From contig CAWVXU010000088.1 of assembly GCA_963934255.1 (NCBI GenBank), positions 1 through 10,661 of the forward strand: a DNA stretch of 10,661 nucleotides, read 5' to 3'. Position numbers and translations under genes: made by a program. Below the pieces are notes generated by a model that saw only the letters and a program-made list of their open reading frames with translations, ran no database searches and had not been told where the DNA came from. This DNA comes from an uncultured Fibrobacterales bacterium. Its GTDB lineage: Bacteria; Fibrobacterota; Fibrobacteria; Fibrobacterales; CAWVXU01. Below, one piece after another: positions 301 through 10,586 of the stretch. Within the stretch, counting starts at the first letter, position 1; each line of letters begins with the position of its first letter.

Positions 301-3300
301 TTATTTTAAATATTTTTTCAATTTGTACTCCTCGACAATAGACGTCAGCACTGGTACGACAAATACGCTGACTATCACTATCAACATCCCACCAAAAGAA
401 GGAATGGACATAGGAAGCATGACATCTGAACCTCTTCCATCACTGGTCAATACAGGGGTAAGCGCAAGTAGAGTAGTTGATGTTGTCATGATACATGGCC
501 TGATACGTTTCTCACCTGCTTTGATAATCGCGTCAAAGAGTGATTTACGATCGAAAGATTTCGTGGCTTCAAGTTGTTGGGATATATATTCACTCATGAC
601 TACACCATCATCAGTTGCTATACCTGAAAGTGCTATGAACCCTACCCAAACTGCCACACTTAAATTGACCGTTCTGATTTGAAATAATTCTCTTAGGTCA
701 ATACTAAAAAAACTAAAGTTTAAAAACCAATCTGTGTTATATAAACCAATGAGTAAAAAGCCACCAGACCAAGCAATAAATACTCCGGTGTAGATCACTA
801 GGACCGTTGAAAACTTTCCAAACTGAAGGTACAGTATCAACATGACAATAAGAAGCGCGAGCGGCAGTACAATGGATAGTGTTTTAGCTGAACGCAATTG
901 GTTCTCGTAATTTCCAGTAAACTTGTAACTCACACCGGCTGGCACAGTCAATTGATTGTTGGCTATTTTATCATTCAAATGCTTTTGTGCTTTTTCAATC
1001 ACATCCGTTTCTGACTTCCCTGGAGTTTTGTCAAAAACAACATATCCGACTAAAAATCCATCTTCACTCTTAATCACCATAGGACCACGACTAAATTCAA
1101 TCGATGCTACTTGAGATACAGGTATTTGAGCGCCAGATTGAGTCGCAATTAGAACGTTTTTCATGGCCTCAATATTATCGCGTTCTTCACGTAGATATCT
1201 GACTCTTATCGGGTAACGCTCGCGGCCTTCCACCGTATAACTTGCCGTTCGACCACCAAGAGCAGCCATAAGTGTCATCTGAACATTCTGGATGGACAAA
1301 CCTAAACGTGCGGCTTTTTTGCGATCGATATTAAATTCCAAATAAGGTTTACCAACAATACGGTCTGCAATAACTGTGGCAGGCTCAACACCTTCGGACA
1401 TTTTAAGCTCTTGTTCGAGTTTAAGTCCGAAATCCTCAATTGTTTTTAGGTCTGGACCTTTTACTTTTATACCCATTGGGCCTCTCATACCACTTTGTAA
1501 CATGACAATTCTGGCGGCAATAGGCATTAATTTTGGAGCTGAAGTCATTCCTGGTATCTTTAACATCCCCACAATTTCGGTCCAGATATCATCCGGGCTT
1601 TTGATGTGACTACGCCATTGCCTTGTCCTGATACCCACACTATCTGTGGCATACTCAGTCTTATAGTTAATAATCACCTCAAACATAGATGGAGGCGCTG
1701 GGTCCAAAGATGATTCAGCACGTCCTAATTTGCCTACCACGAGCTCGACTTCAGGTATAGTCATCAAGAGTTGATCAAGGATTGAAAGCTGCTCTTGGGC
1801 TTCTTCAAAAGACGCATGCGGCATCGTAGTTGGCATCAGTAAAAAAGACCCCTCATCAAGTGCTGGCATAAATTCTTTGCCTGTATTGGACCAAGAGATA
1901 ACCCCGCCGACAAGTAAGGTACATGGGAAAGCCAAAAACATCGTTCGGTTATTGAGGCACCAACGAAGCATCATAGGATAGATCTTGATGAAATAGTTAA
2001 AGAGCAAGAGGACCCCATACAAAACCCCACTCACAAATAAAAGATTCCCTAGTTCTCCTGCATTGGGTCCCAGTGGCATCCAATGATGTGAAAGATAGAC
2101 TGTAGCTAAAATAAGCAGGCCACGTAAAAACCAAGTATTCGTTCTTTGCTTTGATTTTGATAGAACCTTTTTACCCTTATTAAACAACAATAGTGCTAAT
2201 GGTGGAATCACAATTAATCCAAGTAAAAGTGCCGACACTAAGGCGAAGGTTTTGGTATAAGCGAGTGGCTTAAAGAGCTTACCTTCTGCGGCAGTCATGG
2301 TAAATATGGGAATAAAACTAATCACTGTAGTTGACACAGCGGTTAGAATTGCACCGGCGACTTCCTTGGTAGCAAGATAGATCACTTGGATTTTAGAGTC
2401 TTTTTCCTTGGCCTTCTCTAGATGGACAATAATATTTTCACATAAAATAATCCCCATATCTACCATGGTACCAATGGCAATAGCAATCCCCGACAAGGCG
2501 ACCACATTGGCATCCACATTAAATATTTTCATTAAAACAAAACAAATTAAAACCGCAATAGGTAATAATATTGAGATGACTAAACTCGATCTCAGATGTC
2601 CCAGCATAAATAATATTACAATCACTGTGATAAGAATCTCTTCACTCAAAGCACTCTTTAAAGTATTTAAAGTCTCATTAATTAAACCCGCTCTATTGTA
2701 AAACGGTACAATAGAAACCTTACTCACAGTGCCATCAGCGAGTATTCGACTTGGTAGACCAGGGGCTATCTCCAAAACCTTGGCTTCAATTCCTTTAATT
2801 GCTTCAAGAGGGTTATCGCCATATCTTACAACGACTACTCCACCCGCTACATCTACACCCATTTTATCTAAAGCACCACGTCTTGGTGCCGGACCCAGAT
2901 GCACATGAGCAATTTGGTCAAGCATGATTGGCTGATTATCTCTTTCAACAATCAAGGTGGCTTTGAGATCCTCAATATTCTTGACATAGCCCTTCGCTCG
3001 TATCACATACTCAGCTCTATTAATTTCTACCGTCCGAGCGCCTACATCTTTATTTGATTCAGAAATCGCCTGGTAAACTTTTTCAAGTGAGATATTAAAG
3101 TGACGAAGTTTATCAGGATCAATATCGACTTGATATTCTCGGTTCATCCCACCAGCAGAAGCGACTTCGGCAATACCTTTGACTCCCTGTAATGCATATT
3201 TTATATAAAAGTCATTGATACTTTTTAATTCATCTAAATCCCAACCTCCAACTGGGTTCCCTAAACTATCAAGACCTTCAAGAGTGTACCAATAGACTTG

Positions 3301-3774
3301 GCCTAAGGCGGTCGCATCGGGCCCAAGAGTGGGTTGAACTTCTGTAGGCAAAACACCACTCGGTAAGCTACTGAGCTTTTCGAGGATCCTACTCCTAGAC
3401 CAATAAAAGTCAACATCCTCTTCAAATATCACATAGATAGAAGAAAATCCAAAATACGAATAGGATCTTATTGTCTTGACGCCGGGAACACCCATGAGCT
3501 GGACAGTCATCGGATAGGTGATTTGATCTTCTACATCTTGGGGGCTTCTACCATTCCATTCAGTAAATACGATTTGTTGGTTCTCACCAATGTCAGGGAT
3601 AGCATCTACAGGAACTGCGTATCTAGGAACTCCTATATTAAAATCAAAAGGTGATGTGGATAAGCCTGCAAAAATAAGGAAACCTAGAATGATGAAAACA
3701 ATCAGCTTTCTCTCTAAGCTAAATCGAATCAGGGCGTTTAAAAGGCCTTTATCTTCTGGTAGGAGATTGGACAT
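301..3774 (-). CDS. cusA: Heavy-metal efflux RND permease, CusA/SilA type (Cu+/Ag+)
   Basis: 1157 aa. CusA-type motifs: PVDAIPDI, W-x-GRSPQDVEDQITYP, LGPDATALG, TM4 AIAIGTMVDMGIILCEN (D439/E446, matching E. coli CusA D405/E412), EGKLFKPLAYTKTF, GKEFMPALDEG. Met triad M647/M697/M758 sits in contexts matching CusA M573/M623/M672. The start overlaps the upstream stop by 1 nt (TAATG at 3776-3772). Confidence 0.93.
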   Translation of the reverse strand: MSNLLPEDKGLLNALIRFSLERKLIVFIILGFLIFAGLSTSPFDFNIGVPRYAVPVDAIPDIGENQQIVFTEWNGRSPQDVEDQITYPMTVQLMGVPGVKTIRSYSYFGFSSIYVIFEEDVDFYWSRSRILEKLSSLPSGVLPTEVQPTLGPDATALGQVYWYTLEGLDSLGNPVGGWDLDELKSINDFYIKYALQGVKGIAEVASAGGMNREYQVDIDPDKLRHFNISLEKVYQAISESNKDVGARTVEINRAEYVIRAKGYVKNIEDLKATLIVERDNQPIMLDQIAHVHLGPAPRRGALDKMGVDVAGGVVVVRYGDNPLEAIKGIEAKVLEIAPGLPSRILADGTVSKVSIVPFYNRAGLINETLNTLKSALSEEILITVIVILFMLGHLRSSLVISILLPIAVLICFVLMKIFNVDANVVALSGIAIAIGTMVDMGIILCENIIVHLEKAKEKDSKIQVIYLATKEVAGAILTAVSTTVISFIPIFTMTAAEGKLFKPLAYTKTFALVSALLLGLIVIPPLALLLFNKGKKVLSKSKQRTNTWFLRGLLILATVYLSHHWMPLGPNAGELGNLLFVSGVLYGVLLLFNYFIKIYPMMLRWCLNNRTMFLAFPCTLLVGGVISWSNTGKEFMPALDEGSFLLMPTTMPHASFEEAQEQLSILDQLLMTIPEVELVVGKLGRAESSLDPAPPSMFEVIINYKTEYATDSVGIRTRQWRSHIKSPDDIWTEIVGMLKIPGMTSAPKLMPIAARIVMLQSGMRGPMGIKVKGPDLKTIEDFGLKLEQELKMSEGVEPATVIADRIVGKPYLEFNIDRKKAARLGLSIQNVQMTLMAALGGRTASYTVEGRERYPIRVRYLREERDNIEAMKNVLIATQSGAQIPVSQVASIEFSRGPMVIKSEDGFLVGYVVFDKTPGKSETDVIEKAQKHLNDKIANNQLTVPAGVSYKFTGNYENQLRSAKTLSIVLPLALLIVMLILYLQFGKFSTVLVIYTGVFIAWSGGFLLIGLYNTDWFLNFSFFSIDLRELFQIRTVNLSVAVWVGFIALSGIATDDGVVMSEYISQQLEATKSFDRKSLFDAIIKAGEKRIRPCIMTTSTTLLALTPVLTSDGRGSDVMLPMSIPSFGGMLIVIVSVFVVPVLTSIVEEYKLKKYLK

Positions 3775-5081
3775 TATTTGTCGCCTTGATGGAGAGTTTC
3801 TTTGTTATCACTCATGCTGCCGCGATTATGAACTGCATTCACGATTCCGGCTTGTGGATACATCATTGATGGATTTGCTTGAATCTGCATAGCAGCATCA
3901 ATTTTAAAAGCACCTCTTTTAACAATAGTTTCACCCCCGGTTAATCCACGTAGGACTTCATATTGTCCATTGATAATAGAACCTAATTCGACTACACGAT
4001 TAGTATAAACGCCTTCTGCTTCCTCGACATAAACTAAAGCTCTTTTTCCTGTGAACAAAGGAGCTGATTCCGGAATGTAAAGTTTATTTACGGTATCCTT
4101 AATTCTTAATTTCCCACGGACTAACATCCCTGGTTTAAGTAGCTTCTTTTTGTTTTTGACAGTCAGTCTGATTCTTATCGTTCTCGTTTTTGGATTGAGT
4201 ACTGGGTCGATAAATTCCACTTTTGATGTAAAAATGTGGCCTGGTAAATTTTCGGCACTCAGTTCAATCTTTTGTCCTCGTTGAATTAATGTCAAGTCCT
4301 TTTCAAAAACCTCCAACTCCACCCAAAGGCTATAACTCGAACCCAACTTAATTAAAGGAGTTCCTGTTTTGACGTATTGACCTTCTACTACTCCGAGAGA
4401 AACCACGACACCACTATTTTGGGCCCGCTGTACTACTCGTTCAGAGTTCATGCTAGTCAACTCTTTAATTCTTGAATCATCTAATCCTAGTAACTCAAGT
4501 TTTTTGTGTACCGCATGGATAAGTTTGATATCTCCATTTAAGTTGGCCTGCTTCCATTCTTCAGCTGCAGTATAAAGTTCTGGGCTATAAACCTCTGCTA
4601 TGACTTGACCTTTTTTAACATATTGGCCCGTATAGCTGACATGTAATTTTTCAATTCTACCTCCAAACCAAGCAGTCTCTGTTTTGAGAAGAGTTTCATT
4701 CCAGGCGATCATTCCATTTAGTTCTTTATCGCCATCTAATTGGCCATTGACAACTTTAACGGTTTGAACTTTTGCAAGCTGACGTGCATAAGGCGATAAC
4801 TGTATATTGGGTCCATCAACATCACTTGTGTTTTTATTTGATTCTAAGACAATGAGGTCCATCCCACAAATTGGGCATTGACCAGAGCTAGGTAATTTAA
4901 TCTGTGGGTGCATAGAACAGGTCCAAGTATCTACTTGCGTTTTGGATTGCTCCTCTGAAGCATGACTATGGCCTTCTTGGATTGAATGATTTCCCGACCC
5001 AATGCCAAATCCGACTACTAGGGAAATGACCATAATGAGTACCATAATAATTATTGAATTTTTATCAAAAGATTTTTTCAT
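3774..5081 (-). CDS. cusB: RND efflux periplasmic adaptor (membrane fusion protein), CusB type, with N-terminal heavy-metal-binding domain
   Basis: 435 aa. N-terminal membrane anchor, His-rich segment, WTCSMHPQI-x7-CPICGMDL motif (aa 53-76), GRIEKLHV...GQYVKKGQ...YSPEL lipoyl/hairpin motifs, FIDPVLNPKTRTIRIRL, LKPGM. SD AAGGAG at 5093-5088. Located between tolC-like and cusA-like genes. Confidence 0.92.
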   Translation of the reverse strand: MKKSFDKNSIIIMVLIMVISLVVGFGIGSGNHSIQEGHSHASEEQSKTQVDTWTCSMHPQIKLPSSGQCPICGMDLIVLESNKNTSDVDGPNIQLSPYARQLAKVQTVKVVNGQLDGDKELNGMIAWNETLLKTETAWFGGRIEKLHVSYTGQYVKKGQVIAEVYSPELYTAAEEWKQANLNGDIKLIHAVHKKLELLGLDDSRIKELTSMNSERVVQRAQNSGVVVSLGVVEGQYVKTGTPLIKLGSSYSLWVELEVFEKDLTLIQRGQKIELSAENLPGHIFTSKVEFIDPVLNPKTRTIRIRLTVKNKKKLLKPGMLVRGKLRIKDTVNKLYIPESAPLFTGKRALVYVEEAEGVYTNRVVELGSIINGQYEVLRGLTGGETIVKRGAFKIDAAMQIQANPSMMYPQAGIVNAVHNRGSMSDNKETLHQGDK

Positions 5082-5082
5082 T

Positions 5083-6393
5083 TTACTCTCCTTTGTCTAA
5101 TTGAGACGAGAAGCTATTCACAGCATAAGGGAACTCAAACTGAGATGATTCATCACCTAAAATCCAAAGCAATGTTGACTTGGCTTTAAACTCATTACCT
5201 GCGACTACATAAATTTTGCGTTGTAAATTTAACCGCATTCTATAATCATCTATTAGTTGCATAAACCCCTGTCTTCCAGACACATATGATTGTTCACTAA
5301 CAGCAATAGATTGTTCAATATTGGGTAAAATTGTATTTCGATACAAATTGATTCTTCGCATTGATTCTTCAATTTGATTGAAACTTTTTTTTGTTATTTT
5401 TGAAACCATTAAGGATTGTTCTTGTGTTAAAACATCGGCTTGCTTTTGACCGATCAGGGTTTCTTTAATTGAGGCAGAAGTCTTAGTGAAAGATAACGGC
5501 AGAGTCATGCCTACATTGATTAACCAAGAGTCATTACCACTCTTTGCAACACCTGGTGCTTCTCCAGTTTTTATATAGTCTAATCCAATTGTTAAGTTAG
5601 GTAAATATCCATTTCGGCTCAGTGATTCTTGAGCTGCCCAAAAAGACTTCTTAGCCATTGCCGCCTGCAGTAGTGGATTTGAAATAATTTCGGCAGGGAA
5701 TACTTGAGTACCTAGCTGCGTTGAAATATTTAGAAATGTATTGCTATCAATAGAGAAATTAATTTCCTTTTGATTAGTGGCTTCACTTAGATCGAAATAC
5801 CTATCAGCTAGCTTACGAGATAAGTTGCTAGATTCATCTTTTAAAACCTCAATTTCATTTTTCATTTTCAAAACATTTGCATAAGATGATTTCCCTGTTT
5901 GATAATCTATCATCAGCTTTTTCTTCCAATTTTGATACAGCTTAATTGTTTTCTCCACAACACCTTTATTCAAGCTCAGCACTTGAATATCTGACCAAGC
6001 ATGGCGTATACTTAAGATAAGTCTCGCTTTAGTTCCCAGAAGCATACTTTCTGTGATAGCCGCTTTTTTTCGAATCACATTTTTTTGATCTATTAATTTT
6101 CCAGGCCAAGGTATGCTTTGTTGAATTCCAAACTTCTGCTCTTGTGGGCCTACTTTTGTTTGTACGCTCTCACCAAACCAAGAATAAGTCATCATCGGAT
6201 CGGGTAATTCACCGACTTGGTTGACCTCTTGTAGTTGCATTTCTTTTTGTAAAACAACCTGCTTGATTTTAGGACTCTCTTGTAAAGCGAGTTGACTCAC
6301 TCTACTCAGATCTAATGTTTCTCCGGCCATCACAGAATAGCCAATTGTAACATAAACTAATAGCAGTAAATAATTCATTTTAATCTCATTCAT
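5083..6393 (-). CDS. TolC-family outer membrane efflux protein (CusC/CzcC role)
   Basis: 436 aa, signal-peptide-like N-terminus without a lipobox Cys. Motifs LPDPM...GPQEQKFGIQQSIPWPGKL, YLPNLTIG, VGMTLPL, SYVSGR-x-x-F-x-x-LID typical of metal-efflux outer membrane factors. Stop lies 1 nt before the cusB start. Start could be M1 (6393) or M6 (6378). Confidence 0.9.
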   Translation of the reverse strand: MNEIKMNYLLLLVYVTIGYSVMAGETLDLSRVSQLALQESPKIKQVVLQKEMQLQEVNQVGELPDPMMTYSWFGESVQTKVGPQEQKFGIQQSIPWPGKLIDQKNVIRKKAAITESMLLGTKARLILSIRHAWSDIQVLSLNKGVVEKTIKLYQNWKKKLMIDYQTGKSSYANVLKMKNEIEVLKDESSNLSRKLADRYFDLSEATNQKEINFSIDSNTFLNISTQLGTQVFPAEIISNPLLQAAMAKKSFWAAQESLSRNGYLPNLTIGLDYIKTGEAPGVAKSGNDSWLINVGMTLPLSFTKTSASIKETLIGQKQADVLTQEQSLMVSKITKKSFNQIEESMRRINLYRNTILPNIEQSIAVSEQSYVSGRQGFMQLIDDYRMRLNLQRKIYVVAGNEFKAKSTLLWILGDESSQFEFPYAVNSFSSQLDKGE

Positions 6394-6461: not shown

Positions 6462-6944
6462 TTAAATTAAAAGCATTTGTTTGAACTGAAAATCAGTTGC
6501 CGTCCATTGAGTCAGATTTCTCTGGCTATTAATTTGGCTTTTGGAGTTTTCTCGAATAAGAGAATTAGAAATACTAAGAGCAAGTAGAGCACCATTAAAT
6601 GAATTGAATGATTTTAGTGTTTGATAAGGAGCTTTGTATGTTGTTTTTAGTTGAGTATAGTATTGAGGTTGTATTTGGATCAGTTCAGCCGAAGTTAAAG
6701 TACTTTGCCAAGCATCATTACATTCACAAAGTCCGATTGTTTCCGCGGTCTCCCTGGTCTCTATGTTCTCTGAAGTGATTTCCTCAGGAGCAATCTGATT
6801 TGGGCAACAACTATGCTCTACTCCCATCTCATCACGGCTCGTCAATTCACCCATCCACATAGATAGGCACGTATTTGGCATGCTTAAGCTAAATACTTGT
6901 ACGACCATTAAAACGGCCAAAATCTTGTGAATTGATGTGATCAT
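6462..6944 (-). CDS. Hypothetical Cys-rich exported/membrane-anchored protein heading the metal efflux operon (possible regulatory leader ORF)
   Basis: 160 aa with a hydrophobic N-terminus, C26, an HSCC motif, a CEC motif and a hydrophobic C-terminal tail (QMLLI). Co-oriented, 68 nt upstream of the tolC-like gene. Confidence 0.72.
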   Translation of the reverse strand: MITSIHKILAVLMVVQVFSLSMPNTCLSMWMGELTSRDEMGVEHSCCPNQIAPEEITSENIETRETAETIGLCECNDAWQSTLTSAELIQIQPQYYTQLKTTYKAPYQTLKSFNSFNGALLALSISNSLIRENSKSQINSQRNLTQWTATDFQFKQMLLI

Positions 6945-7060: not shown

Positions 7061-7573
7061 CTAGTTCACCTCTTGATTTACATGGTTTTGGTTTAAACTA
7101 TCATGAGCCGATTTGATGACTTGAGCTAGCCTCAACCACGAGTCTTCTTGAATCGCCCACCCGGCTATAAGGAAAAAAGGGCGAGGCTCTAGAGTGTCAG
7201 GATCTTCTCTTAGTATGTAAAGTTTGCCATTTTGGATAATTAACTGAGAAAAGTCTTGATATCTATAACGCTTGGAGCCTGGACCAAAGAGGGCAAAGAT
7301 ATGGATATCTTGCTCTGTAATCGTTAATATGACTTTTTTGGACATTTTCAACGCAGTTAAAAGAAGAACTAAAGGCAAAAACCATACAAAGGGATCCAAC
7401 ATAATGACTGATAATTGCGATTCACTATCAAGGCCAGCTATTAATTTCCAAAGAAAAAATAGTATGGCAAATAATCCAATTATTACAGGGCGCTTAGAGG
7501 TGTACTTAAATAGCCAAGGAAATTGAATAACTATCTTTACCCCATTTACCACTTCTTTTTCTTTTTGATTCAT
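7061..7573 (-). CDS. Hypothetical membrane protein (two TM helices followed by a possible bacterial PH-like domain)
   Basis: 170 aa. Hydrophobic segments VIIGLFAILFFLWKLIAGL and PFVWFLPLVLLLTAL, followed by beta-rich VILTITEQDIHI...KRYRYQDFSQLII, a pattern common in bPH/YcxB-like proteins. Weak SD AAGAG upstream. Confidence 0.75.
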   Translation of the reverse strand: MNQKEKEVVNGVKIVIQFPWLFKYTSKRPVIIGLFAILFFLWKLIAGLDSESQLSVIMLDPFVWFLPLVLLLTALKMSKKVILTITEQDIHIFALFGPGSKRYRYQDFSQLIIQNGKLYILREDPDTLEPRPFFLIAGWAIQEDSWLRLAQVIKSAHDSLNQNHVNQEVN

Positions 7574-7627: not shown

Positions 7628-7942
7628 TCAGTTCGATTTTTGTATTAACTTGAGTTGCTCTTTAATTAAATTTATCACAATGTCACGCTCATTATCGTCA
7701 CTCGCATCGCCAAAGTCATAGCTCCGTCTCACCCATTCTCCTTGAGTCGTCATCACTCCCCCCCAAGCGATTCCCGACCAAGCCACTTGACTTGCTTCTT
7801 GAACATCACGGTGTCGAGTATAGACAGGGGTCCACAAGATTTCATTTCCATGGGTTATGATAAAAGTCACGCCCTTTCCGCCGAAATTGACTTCGTCAAT
7901 TCTACGCAGAGTATAATCTATTATAGAATGGTTTTGTTCCAT
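7628..7942 (-). CDS. Hypothetical cytoplasmic protein, 104 aa
   Basis: ORF track starts at TTG 7960, but the ATG at 7942 has a strong SD (AGGAG at 7952-7948, 5-nt spacing), so it is the preferred start. Co-oriented, 52 nt downstream of the hemH-MFS stop. Confidence 0.72.
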   Translation of the reverse strand: MEQNHSIIDYTLRRIDEVNFGGKGVTFIITHGNEILWTPVYTRHRDVQEASQVAWSGIAWGGVMTTQGEWVRRSYDFGDASDDNERDIVINLIKEQLKLIQKSN

Positions 7943-7994
7943 CTCATCTCCTAGGCTCAAATTACCGCGATCATTTATTCACATTTATGGTTTT

Positions 7995-10430
7995 TTAGTC
8001 CGGATTGGGTAAATCATCTAATTTTTTAATCATACGCAAGAGGAGAATCGGTATCAAGAGTGCCGCAGCTCCGGCTATATATGGCATAGTAGCGTTAGCA
8101 CGCCAGTAAAGCACACACGCCACAAGTGGCCCAATAGTCCGCCCCAAAGCGCCCAAACTTCTAAATGTTCCTAATACACGCCCTTGCTCGCTTGCTGGGC
8201 TGTACTTAGATACCATTGCTGTAATACAGGGGATGACTTGAGCAGATCCAATCGCCATAAAGAAAGTTGAGAGATACAGCATCCAAGTATGATGACTAAA
8301 GCCCACACCAATAAGCGCCGGCATTAAGATCCAAAGCCCTTGGATAGCCATTTTATTTTCACCAACAATTGAGGCTTTGCGACGTACATAACCACCTTGT
8401 GTGAAAGCTAATGTCATCCCAATAAATAAGAATAGCAATCCGTTTTGAGCAGGGGTATAATTCAGCCTCTCAACAGCGAGGAATGTTAATGTGAACTCAG
8501 TCCCACTAAATGCAGCCAAAAAGAAAAAATTTGTCAAATTGACTTCTGAAACGCCAGGGTACTTCTCTTTTTTGAATAATTTAAAGACATTAAAAGTTCT
8601 TAGGCTTTTAGATAAATTTCTTCGACTTTTAGGCAGTGTCTCAGGCAAATTATGGTAAACAAAATGAAGTGCTACCATACTACTCACAAAGGAAATTAAA
8701 GCAGGCACACTAAACGGGTTGATTCCATACTCTTGCCATGAAGGGAAATAATCCAATAAATTAATCTGTGCACTGAGACCACCGATCACCGGACCAAATA
8801 TAAAGCCGAGCCCAAATGAAATCCCTACAATTGCCATGCCCTTAGACCTAGACTTTTTATCAGTAATATCAGCCACGACTGCAGTTGCCGTGGATATATT
8901 GGACCCCATCAAGCCACCTAATAAACGAGCGAAGAAGAGTGTTGTAAATGTCCCAGCAAACCCCCACCAAAGATAGGATAGTGCCAATCCAAAAACAGAG
9001 ACAAATAACACCGGCTTACGGCCAATTTTATCAGATAGAGTTCCCATGATAGGAGCCACGATAAATTGTATACCAGAATAAATGAAGCTTAAGAACCCAC
9101 CAAACAATACCGCAAGTGCAATCCTTGCTGAAGTCTCAGTGTCACCCGTAGCACCAGCCCAAGCTGCCAAAGAATTTAAGTGACCTACGATATAATTAAG
9201 TAGAGTTGATTCAGGAGCAGAGTAGAGGTAATAATCTAGAAGCGATGGGAAAAGCGGGAATATCATCGAGAAACTAACAAGATCCAGGAACAAAATCATA
9301 AATACGACTTTGAGGATCTTCTTGGCTTCAGGAGTCAGTGATGCGGGTTTTTCACCTAGTGGTGGAAATTCAAAAACCTCTGCCTCAGTCGGAACATGTC
9401 GCTCAATCGAAACTTGAGGATCGGCAATTTCACTGGCAAATCTTTTCACCCATCTCGGGTCGTCATTGAGACAAGGAATCGTAGCAAAATTTTCACCTCC
9501 ATTCTCAATAAAGGTCTCACGAAGTTCTATGTCGATTTCTTCATTTGTCTCAAGATTATCAACAGTAAAAGCTGGACAGATCACCGCAAGGTTTTTAATT
9601 CCTTTTTGAGCAAGTTCAATTGTTTTGTTTTCCGTTGAAGGCTTCAGCCATTCTTCACGACCAAATTGAGATTGAAAAGCACAAATATATTCAGGGATTG
9701 TAAAGTCAGAGTCAGACTCACTGCGGCGCTTTAATTCTTTACCAAGAAGTTGGAAAGTTTCACGACAATGGTAATAGTAGGGGTCACCATCATAGATTCT
9801 TTGTTTGGGAAGGCCATGGAAGGAAACGAGAAGGACTTCAGCGGCTTTATTTTGAACAGCTTGCTCTTTGAGAGTCTCGACCGTTCTGTCTGCCAGTGAG
9901 TCAATAAAGGCCTTCGTATTATGAAACCACTCAATCCAATCAAATTCAATCTTGGCCATATCATAGCCTTGACTTTCTAACTGCGGGATGACTTTCTCAT
10001 ACATCACATCGTGAATAGACAGTGTCGTTGAAGCAGAGTACTGAGGATACTGAGGTATGACGCGAATTGTCGTACAACCCTGATCTAGGAGGCTTTGGAC
10101 TCCTTCAGGGATAAAAGGCGCTTGCCCCAAAACAAAACAATGTCTTACAGGGTAATCAGGTAATTCACGTGCAACGGCTTGACTAAAATCTTCTGTCTGA
10201 AATATCAAGGGAAAGCCACGCTCCGTATGTATAGATGCATAGGCCGCAGCACTCTTAGGTGAGCGAGTCGGCAGGATGATTGCATTCAGCAAAATTTTCC
10301 AGCCTAAACCTTGATTGGTAATGAGTCGACGATCGCTTAAAAAATCGCGCAAATAAGCTTTGACATCCGGAACACTGGGACTTTTAGGTGAACCAAGCTG
10401 GACTAGTAAAATTCCTGTTTTCAATGTCAT
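7995..10430 (-). CDS. hemH: Fusion protein: ferrochelatase (HemH) domain, aa ~1-337, plus MFS transporter (TetA/MFSD10-like), aa ~371-811
   Basis: 811 aa uninterrupted frame with SD GAGG upstream. Ferrochelatase motifs: GILLVQLGSP, YLRDFLSD, YPQYSASTT, LLVSFHGLP (H205), GDPY, FQSQFG..EWLKPST, PAFTVDNLET..EI (E294), PCLND. MFS motifs: TM1 LFLDLVSFSMIFPLFP, motif A GTLSDKIGRK (aa 463-472), ARLLGG, VADIT, antiporter motif C GLGFIFGPVIGG, LPETL, QGRVLG...IGP. Confidence 0.93.
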   Translation of the reverse strand: MTLKTGILLVQLGSPKSPSVPDVKAYLRDFLSDRRLITNQGLGWKILLNAIILPTRSPKSAAAYASIHTERGFPLIFQTEDFSQAVARELPDYPVRHCFVLGQAPFIPEGVQSLLDQGCTTIRVIPQYPQYSASTTLSIHDVMYEKVIPQLESQGYDMAKIEFDWIEWFHNTKAFIDSLADRTVETLKEQAVQNKAAEVLLVSFHGLPKQRIYDGDPYYYHCRETFQLLGKELKRRSESDSDFTIPEYICAFQSQFGREEWLKPSTENKTIELAQKGIKNLAVICPAFTVDNLETNEEIDIELRETFIENGGENFATIPCLNDDPRWVKRFASEIADPQVSIERHVPTEAEVFEFPPLGEKPASLTPEAKKILKVVFMILFLDLVSFSMIFPLFPSLLDYYLYSAPESTLLNYIVGHLNSLAAWAGATGDTETSARIALAVLFGGFLSFIYSGIQFIVAPIMGTLSDKIGRKPVLFVSVFGLALSYLWWGFAGTFTTLFFARLLGGLMGSNISTATAVVADITDKKSRSKGMAIVGISFGLGFIFGPVIGGLSAQINLLDYFPSWQEYGINPFSVPALISFVSSMVALHFVYHNLPETLPKSRRNLSKSLRTFNVFKLFKKEKYPGVSEVNLTNFFFLAAFSGTEFTLTFLAVERLNYTPAQNGLLFLFIGMTLAFTQGGYVRRKASIVGENKMAIQGLWILMPALIGVGFSHHTWMLYLSTFFMAIGSAQVIPCITAMVSKYSPASEQGRVLGTFRSLGALGRTIGPLVACVLYWRANATMPYIAGAAALLIPILLLRMIKKLDDLPNPD

Positions 10431-10586
10431 GAAGACCTCATTTATTCAATCGTACCTAAAATAGTAATTCCACTCCAATTGGTGAAGTGAAAGACCACTA
10501 GTATCTATTGAATATTAAAAGCAAATACTCACCGAAATTGAGTTGATATTTCTGTATATTTCATCTAAAACAGAGCAGGCAGAATC

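Follow-up and report, generated by a model that had tools for sequence, protein, structure and literature searches.

A conserved bacterial fusion of ferrochelatase with an MFSD10-like transporter and its possible role in tetrapyrrole export

We analysed a stretch of 10,661 nucleotides from an uncultured Fibrobacterales bacterium (contig CAWVXU010000088.1 of assembly GCA_963934255.1), called the window below, in which one open reading frame (ORF) of 811 amino acids (aa) on the minus strand encodes a ferrochelatase, a linker and a major facilitator superfamily (MFS) transporter. The product is a conserved two-part membrane protein that joins an intact enzyme active site to a complete MFSD10-like transporter. 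Both halves are of known families; the architecture is real, unremarked in the databases and undescribed in the literature searched, and its cargo is unproven. We tentatively read it as driven by protons and exporting heme or protoporphyrin that is in surplus, with the enzyme tethered at the cytoplasmic face, a reading in which our confidence falls a little short of even. What is new is the hem-operon neighbourhood of the unfused orthologues, the loss of either half in some genomes and the spread across phyla. The features referred to in the text are as follows, TM1, TM7 and TM11 being transmembrane helices 1, 7 and 11.

7995-10430, minus strand: ferrochelatase-linker-MFS ORF (Pfam, NCBIfam); AlphaFold2 model with a predicted local distance difference test (pLDDT) of 93.4 and a predicted template modelling score (pTM) of 0.86
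10435-10439, minus strand: Shine-Dalgarno-like GAGGT before the ATG start, read from the sequence
9423-10421, minus strand: ferrochelatase domain, aa 4-336; only PF00762 match of the genome, protoporphyrin type by pathway context
9333-9422, minus strand: linker, aa 337-366; 30 aa, coil in the AlphaFold2 model
8016-9332, minus strand: 12-helix MFS domain, aa 367-805; MFSD10/TETRAN-like DHA1 subfamily
9816-9818, minus strand: H205, catalytic His (human H263) by alignment; invariant in 52 of 52 fused representatives
9549-9551, minus strand: E294, catalytic Glu (human E343) by alignment; invariant in 52 of 52 fused representatives
9012-9044, minus strand: MFS motif A, aa 463-473; G463, S466, D467, G470 and R471 invariant in the best 120 protein matches
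8778-8825, minus strand: motif C, aa 536-551; G536, F539, G542, F543, G546, P547 and G550 invariant in the best 120 matches
9282-9284, minus strand: D383 in TM1, acid also present in MFSD10, candidate for proton coupling
8496-8498, minus strand: E645 in TM7, acid also present in MFSD10, candidate for proton coupling
8160-8162, minus strand: R757 in TM11, Arg specific to the subfamily and also present in MFSD10; candidate site for anion binding
7628-7960, minus strand: small ORF of 110 aa directly downstream of the fusion, marking the same locus in genomes G001 (fused), G004 and G007

The junction between the two halves

Pfam places PF00762 over aa 4-333 (E 4e-85) and PF07690 from aa 376 (E 8e-40). 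A preliminary description of this DNA had taken the frame for a true fusion rather than two merged genes and had seen no start codon ahead of the MFS part. When all codons between aa 300 and 390 were checked, in-frame ATG, GTG or TTG occurred only at 328 (no Shine-Dalgarno sequence seen), 378, 380 and 389, and none lies in the linker, the nearest being 328 and 378. The linker sequence quoted in that description is present, but it is 35 aa long (337-371, 9318-9422) and not about 33; the AlphaFold2 model starts TM1 at aa 367. The linker end of the fusion matches the N-terminus of the unfused transporter orthologues.

The runs listed with this DNA are marine or seawater metagenomes, and four public runs were compared across the linker, one of which (X1) may be the source sample. 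Contigs of two of the four, from two studies, span the whole linker with 0 gaps (X1, 7900-10523; X5, 9046-9767), and no indel or joint was seen at the junction in any of the four. A stop codon lost within 9300-9450 had been considered as a possible source of the long frame; the bridging contigs show no indel there, and the substitutions between runs at 9312 and 9420 are third-position and synonymous, as read by hand from the codons. Genome G001, of the same family and another genus, also has the junction in one frame. Since contigs of two studies bridge the linker without a gap, the fusion is confirmed as real and is not an assembly artefact.

The joining of two genes through a lost stop codon or a misassembly is therefore already refuted at the DNA level, and we give it practically no weight. 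Some database records do give the transporter half alone, beginning at a linker Met (P0157, P0167), but the half-length records match the transporter half of fused proteins at 99.8-100% identity, as annotation splits would, and the junction is kept in G001 and in the best 120 protein matches. Probably the other transporter-only entries that start at the linker Met are annotation splits too; for those of Bacteriovoracia an internal start is a further possibility. The Lentisphaera-type proteins P0024 and P0030 have longer, Cys-rich linkers of 76-81 aa between anchor residues, possibly with a metal or Fe-S site. Scans for promoters and terminators gave chance-level results only.

The ferrochelatase half and heme synthesis

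The enzyme half scores 285.9 bits on PF00762 (cut-off 27) and 228 bits on TIGR00109, the hemH model (cut-off 124.6). H205, D291, E294 and E298 align with human H263, D340, E343 and E347 and do not vary among the 52 fused representatives, which bears out the earlier statement that H205 and E294 are retained; the human numbering offset of 64 was checked against the named variants F337, H341 and E343. The segment with W44, L53 and R56 is common to the fused enzyme half and unfused ferrochelatases, and such a segment of ferrochelatase already binds the membrane.

No second hemH was found by the PF00762 search of the window's genome, which is 92% complete. The same genome encodes HemB, HemE, HemF and a HemJ-like gene, plus HemA, HemL and HemC-like genes; the HemJ-like gene is above its Pfam cut-off, yet reaches 131 bits against 138 on TIGR00701. 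HemB, HemE and HemF are present in all five fused genomes tested, and ChdC was not found in any of the five fused genomes searched, the window's among them. Because HemF and a HemJ-like gene are present and ChdC was not detected, the pathway context assigns the enzyme half to the protoporphyrin (PpfC) rather than the coproporphyrin (CpfC) type as its predicted activity. It resembles HemH/PpfC (PF00762, TIGR00109) in fold, active-site residues and its place in a HemF/HemJ pathway without ChdC, but HemH ends at about 320-370 aa whereas the fusion runs on via its 30-aa linker into a 12-helix transporter. A separate case of unusual length is locus L020 (G012:C18:57846-58856), where the ferrochelatase match lies in a 439-aa frame as against 324-371 aa in its relatives.

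The window's genome has c-type heme motifs and a 636-aa CcsA/CcsB-like protein (134.5 bits, below the cut-off of 187.6), and CcmE was not found in it. Cytochrome c System II moves its own heme. Since the genome makes protoporphyrin itself, porphyrin import looks unnecessary; since a CcsBA-type system is present, the supply of heme to cytochrome c looks to need no fused transporter either. Of the roles offered in the preliminary description, porphyrin import is thus weakened by the presence of HemA, HemL, HemB, HemC, HemE, HemF and J-like genes, and export for cytochrome c by the CcsA/CcsB-like protein. As a side observation, contigs C69, C55, C33 and C30 of the window's genome (G000) carry multi-heme and single-heme c-type cytochrome motifs, and the cytochrome set of C69 resembles what we take to be alternative complex III.

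The transporter half

The MFS domain is complete, with both motif A and motif C, as had been described; it scores 137 bits on PF07690 (cut-off 33.4) and has 12 helices in the AlphaFold2 model. On the other hand, the analogy drawn earlier with TetA metal-chelate antiporters proved to be the wrong comparison, and a TetA identity was rejected: the Tet(A/B/C) model NF012174 is the best NCBIfam match of this half but gives 155.3 bits against a cut-off of 475. The best solved relative is human MFSD10/TETRAN (PDB 6S4M), with a single-sequence E value of 2e-61; in a profile search MFSD10 obtained E 1e-93 and 318 bits compared with 3e-20 and 76 bits for NorA. Foldseek ranks 6S4M first (TM-score 0.91 by target, 32% identity), and an Atlas MFSD10 cluster matches with a TM-score of 0.93. 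Judged by sequence and fold, the transporter half belongs with the MFSD10/TETRAN-like DHA1 subfamily and not with TetA; the trees behind this work covered bacterial sequences.

In the alignment, D383, Q455, R502, E645, Q678, R757 and R764 are common to every one of the 40 fused and 64 unfused rows and to MFSD10, with which N511 is shared as well. R757 is kept in 100% of the fused and unfused rows, where 81% of the 16 TetA-like rows have Gln, and together with S388, Y401, Y486, W489 and R683 it sets the subfamily apart from those 16 rows. The TetA(A/B/C) proteins are likewise DHA1-type MFS with motifs A and C, but the bacterial TetA-like proteins form a separate clade. Motif C, the antiporter motif, marks antiporters. 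The title of entry 6S4M calls MFSD10 an organic anion transporter; the sources seen describe it as a DHA1 drug:H+ antiporter giving resistance to non-steroidal anti-inflammatory drugs (NSAIDs) (PMC8154325) and list indomethacin as a substrate (PMC9333335). The window protein differs from it in being bacterial and enzyme-fused, and the reported cargo of MFSD10 is NSAIDs.

Distribution of the fusion

The protein search gave 852 matches at E<=1e-20 among 8000 candidates, and the best 120 of the 852 were examined. All 120 have both domains, with lengths of 782-881 aa and identities of 43-74% apart from self (the query's cluster is included). Among the carriers are Halobacteriovorax marinus, Bacteriovorax, Lentisphaera profundi, Oligoflexia and Planctomycetota, of which Halobacteriovorax marinus and Lentisphaera profundi are cultured and harmless. 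The architecture is thus already in the databases, as the preliminary description had allowed, but labelled only 'ferrochelatase', including in an 89-member Atlas cluster. No description of the fusion, or of a link between MFSD10 and heme, was found in the open-access literature; subscription journals and supplementary domain-fusion tables were mostly outside this search.

Two-domain proteins were found in Bdellovibrionota, Opitutales, Planctomycetota and the window's own phylum. Phylum and order names here follow the titles of the seed-locus records. The Bdellovibrionota sample was drawn from the phylum to which a Halobacteriovoraceae record belongs; its 121 genomes include 104 with a ferrochelatase and 18 with the fusion, each fusion being the sole ferrochelatase match. 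The fusion occurs in one of 151 Opitutales (G346) and one of 151 Planctomycetota (G566), and in the window's phylum only in the window's genome among 151 sampled, and also in G001, which was found among its relatives. Of the best 80 metagenome loci, which are not a random sample, 43 are fused and 31 are unfused copies that have a start of their own; 5 are truncated where the contig begins, and 1 was left unparsed. The genome-contig search gave 73 ordinary ferrochelatases among its best 80 loci, which were taken as outgroups only.

In the FastTree phylogeny the fused transporter halves form three subclades within one branch that also contains unfused copies. The fused enzyme halves, in trees of their own, form two groups. 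The transporter of G346 groups with that of the window (SH-aLRT 94), which suggests that the whole fused gene was transferred between lineages and may travel intact.

Unfused orthologues beside heme genes

A further link between the transporter and heme comes from its unfused orthologues. In all 83 transporter-positive genomes of the 151 Opitutales we took about 4-5 kb to the left and right of the gene, or a shorter flank where the contig ended, and looked there for hemB, hemC, hemE, hemF, hemH, hemJ, hemL, hemN and hemY, with hemA and hemD outside the test. One of the 83 copies is fused; among the other 82, 8 lie no more than 600 bases from a heme gene, and two further copies have one at 3-4.6 kb. 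In G336, G377, G306 and G358 the transporter stands head-to-head with hemC-hemF-hemE-hemY-hemH (hemY of G306 was seen with a second reference), as it does in metagenome locus L251. It is co-directional behind hemC in G326, where hemE-hemN-hemY-hemH is divergent, head-to-head with hemE-hemN-hemH in G325, and tail-to-tail with hemB in G209 and with hemY in G329. NCBIfam or Pfam confirmed the heme gene names in G336, G325, G326 (hemC, hemY), G329 and G209. The hem operon opposite the unfused transporter in G325 (L287:9077-10969) continues with a CcsB/HemX-like membrane protein and hemA.

The four genomes with hemC-hemF-hemE-hemY-hemH are one clade, so that there are five arrangements at most. By the approximately unbiased (AU) test, the heme-adjacent unfused copies are not in one clade with the fusions (p=0.003, on a quick tree and with the group named after the tree was inspected). 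For the three Opitutales operon arrangements one clade is not rejected (p=0.08), so that they may not be independent of each other. A heme neighbour by chance is put at about 0.5% per independent context, a rough estimate and not a computed control. The adjacency hints at a second link of this transporter to heme, as far as gene order can tell.

Possible function

MFS topology would place the N-terminal enzyme on the cytoplasmic face. According to our favoured reading, the transporter half would export an anionic tetrapyrrole, which may be heme b, protoporphyrin IX in surplus or a porphyrin carrying the wrong metal. Proton antiport is suggested by motif C, D383 and E645, the last two of which would couple export to protons; an anionic cargo is suggested by the conserved arginines, such as R502, R757 and R764, which would hold the propionates, and by the title of the MFSD10 entry. 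Through the tether, the transporter would be stationed where porphyrin and new heme collect and could act as a relief valve that guards against toxic and phototoxic levels. The covalent link would be helpful rather than obligatory, and unfused orthologues could do the same job in trans. The 'make-and-export' module proposed in the preliminary description stands in part: the conserved fusion and the hem-flanking unfused orthologues in a separate clade support a tether at the cytoplasmic face and a cargo that may be a tetrapyrrole, but they do not support an obligatory module, because each half occurs alone in close relatives.

Several findings weigh against the exporter reading. The separability just mentioned is one: in G154 and G097 the transporter stands in the same queF slot but lacks the enzyme half, and these copies are nested among the fused ones of Bacteriovoracia (the ferrochelatase of G154 is of another clade and lies in a hemE-hemN-hemY-hemH operon about 1 Mb from the transporter); in G004 and G007, of the window's order, the enzyme is alone with no close transporter, and its gene is immediately followed by the small ORF that is also found behind the window's fusion. 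The transporter is absent from 38 of 120 ferrochelatase-positive Opitutales, and its neighbour there is more often coaD, which lies within 5 kb in 57 of the 83 copies, mostly co-directional and close. In Planctomycetota 19 of the 21 unfused loci were examined, and the tested hem genes were near none of them; a ferrochelatase was not detected in 4 of the 22 genomes with the transporter, compared with 61 of 151 overall. Among the 31 unfused metagenome loci with their own start, hemH was in 0 and a hem operon adjoined 1. Co-occurrence with hemH, seen in 82 of 83 transporter-positive Opitutales and in 24 of 24 transporter-positive genomes of the Verrucomicrobiota sample (45 of 151 overall), is confounded by kinship, lifestyle and genome reduction, because the Verrucomicrobiota genomes are kin and the Opitutales listed without a ferrochelatase are mostly of 0.8-1.3 Mb. 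One fusion origin is not rejected (AU p=0.45), so that the many fused copies may represent one event and several independent fusions are unsupported. No conserved His, sought as an iron ligand, lies inside the transmembrane helices; E645 could act as one, as a Glu does in HrtB according to PMC11442138, and Glu is there in 88% of the TetA-like rows too. Finally, the AlphaFold2 model (pLDDT 93.4, pTM 0.86) suggests a fixed arrangement of the two halves, which the Atlas model, with a pTM of 0.64, makes less sure. Covariation between enzyme and transporter was also tried, by mutual information over 184 fused sequences (about 108 effective), and set aside: such pairs fill 6 of the top 100 places as against 46% of the full set, the highest-ranking of them involve a loop at the opposite side of the membrane, and we read this as kinship noise.

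Much of this would fit a transporter that serves mainly to anchor the ferrochelatase, the fusion being kept for membrane hold and joint expression while the cargo is an unrelated organic anion or metabolite. We consider this the main rival and a serious possibility, though a somewhat unlikely one. The separable halves and the possible single origin just described agree with it, the only reported MFSD10 cargo in the sources seen is NSAIDs/indomethacin (PMC8154325, PMC9333335), and the neighbours would suggest a CoA- or queuosine-related cargo, queF being divergent from the fused or unfused gene at 59 of the 147 loci scanned (L024, L025, L111-L130, L173-L248). However, coaD and queF are each limited to one sampled lineage, whereas hem genes recur in two clades and five arrangements. 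An anchor would also be superfluous for an enzyme half that keeps its own membrane-binding W44/L53/R56 segment.

If the flow were inward, porphyrin or heme from prey or decaying cells would be taken up and the porphyrin handed to the enzyme for metallation. Many carriers are Bacteriovoracia, which are predatory, and an outer-membrane TonB/ExbBD set adjoins hemB in the window's genome; but the HemB, HemE and HemF genes of all five fused genomes tested, with HemA, L and C-like genes here, leave no need for salvage, full biosynthetic operons flank unfused copies, and motif C speaks for an antiporter. Import is in our view quite improbable. We hold it still more improbable that the transporter supplies iron, as Fe(II) or a chelate, to the enzyme tethered to it, in the manner of mitoferrin in mitochondria, where ferrochelatase partners with mitoferrin and ABC (ATP-binding cassette) proteins (PMC7140478). 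Near the fusion there are ferritin-like genes in G083 and G116 and a convergent FeoB in G110 (loci L163-L165), but conservation of such neighbours is not seen among the loci scanned; the transporter is MFSD10-like in both fold and sequence, with no ferroportin among the matches listed, and the conserved helix residues include several arginines, which suit anions.

Compared with known systems, the exporter reading has parallels in its proposed job. The source texts describe PefA as a DHA-family MFS protein that is induced by heme and protoporphyrin IX and is part of porphyrin efflux (PMC2858704), and report that E. coli expels protoporphyrin IX via MacAB-TolC, mutants turning light-sensitive (PMC4263509). 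These two, with HrtBA, CydDC and a Clostridioides MFS heme exporter (PMC11442138), are concerned with removal or translocation of heme or protoporphyrin IX; unlike the present protein, none is described as ferrochelatase-fused in the portions of these papers available, and PefA serves an organism that makes no heme. The mitochondrial heme metabolon (FECH, mitoferrin, ABCB7/10, TMEM14C; FLVCR1b) likewise couples a ferrochelatase physically to membrane transporters, but non-covalently and with other transporter families, and the FECH-FLVCR1b interaction is, as the review puts it, unsupported by purification data (PMC7140478).

Other genes of the window and of related loci

Downstream on the same strand, 301-6393 (minus) holds a CusA/CusB/CusC-type heavy-metal resistance-nodulation-division (RND) efflux cluster (PF00873, HlyD with HMBD, OEP); a Cys-containing ORF of 160 aa (6462-6944) and a truncated ORF (3-242) accompany it. 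A Cus-type cluster was not seen after the fusion in G001, and for this reason we do not count it as part of the finding. A 170-aa membrane-type ORF of no known family lies at 7061-7573 (minus); G001 has a 134-aa ORF at its position, and tblastn did not link the two. The 110-aa ORF at 7628-7960 has no Pfam, NCBIfam or Atlas match; its homologues follow the ferrochelatase gene in G001, G004 and G007, which makes it a conserved hemH neighbour.

The dominant Opitutales context is a coaD-MFS pair with divergent pgsA-pgpA (L289-L414, 57 of 83 genomes), and a CoA-related cargo is conceivable there. In G110 tgt is near the fusion, and in G083 a 702-aa protein with a C-terminal cytochrome c lies upstream of it. 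More distantly related TetA-like MFS genes at 3-17 kb from hemH in 7 Bdellovibrionota were not counted, as there are intervening genes and most of them belong to one synteny block. These loci (L151-L159; G100, G125, G147, G155, G143, G064, G096) are mostly an MFS-queG-(CNNM)-deoxyhypusine synthase-hemH block with a stand-alone hemH.

Significance

How newly made heme leaves ferrochelatase is poorly understood. A 2024 review (PMC11442138) treats the heme efflux pumps of Gram-negative bacteria as a question still to be answered and mentions one reported MFS exporter. The structure of MFSD10 is solved and only drug cargo is reported for it in the sources seen (PMC8154325, PMC9333335), so the fusion bears on its function as well; one polypeptide with separately assayable halves is relevant both to heme exit and to MFSD10 cargo. 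If the cargo is unrelated, the case reduces to an undescribed membrane-anchored ferrochelatase and an annotation trap. A bolder proposal, which we think unlikely, is that the MFSD10-like family are ancient tetrapyrrole transporters whose Gram-negative members take heme or protoporphyrin directly from a covalently docked ferrochelatase. If true, the fusion would be a natural enzyme-to-transporter channel and a heme or porphyrin efflux MFS in Gram-negative bacteria, and human MFSD10 would, by homology, move heme or porphyrins.

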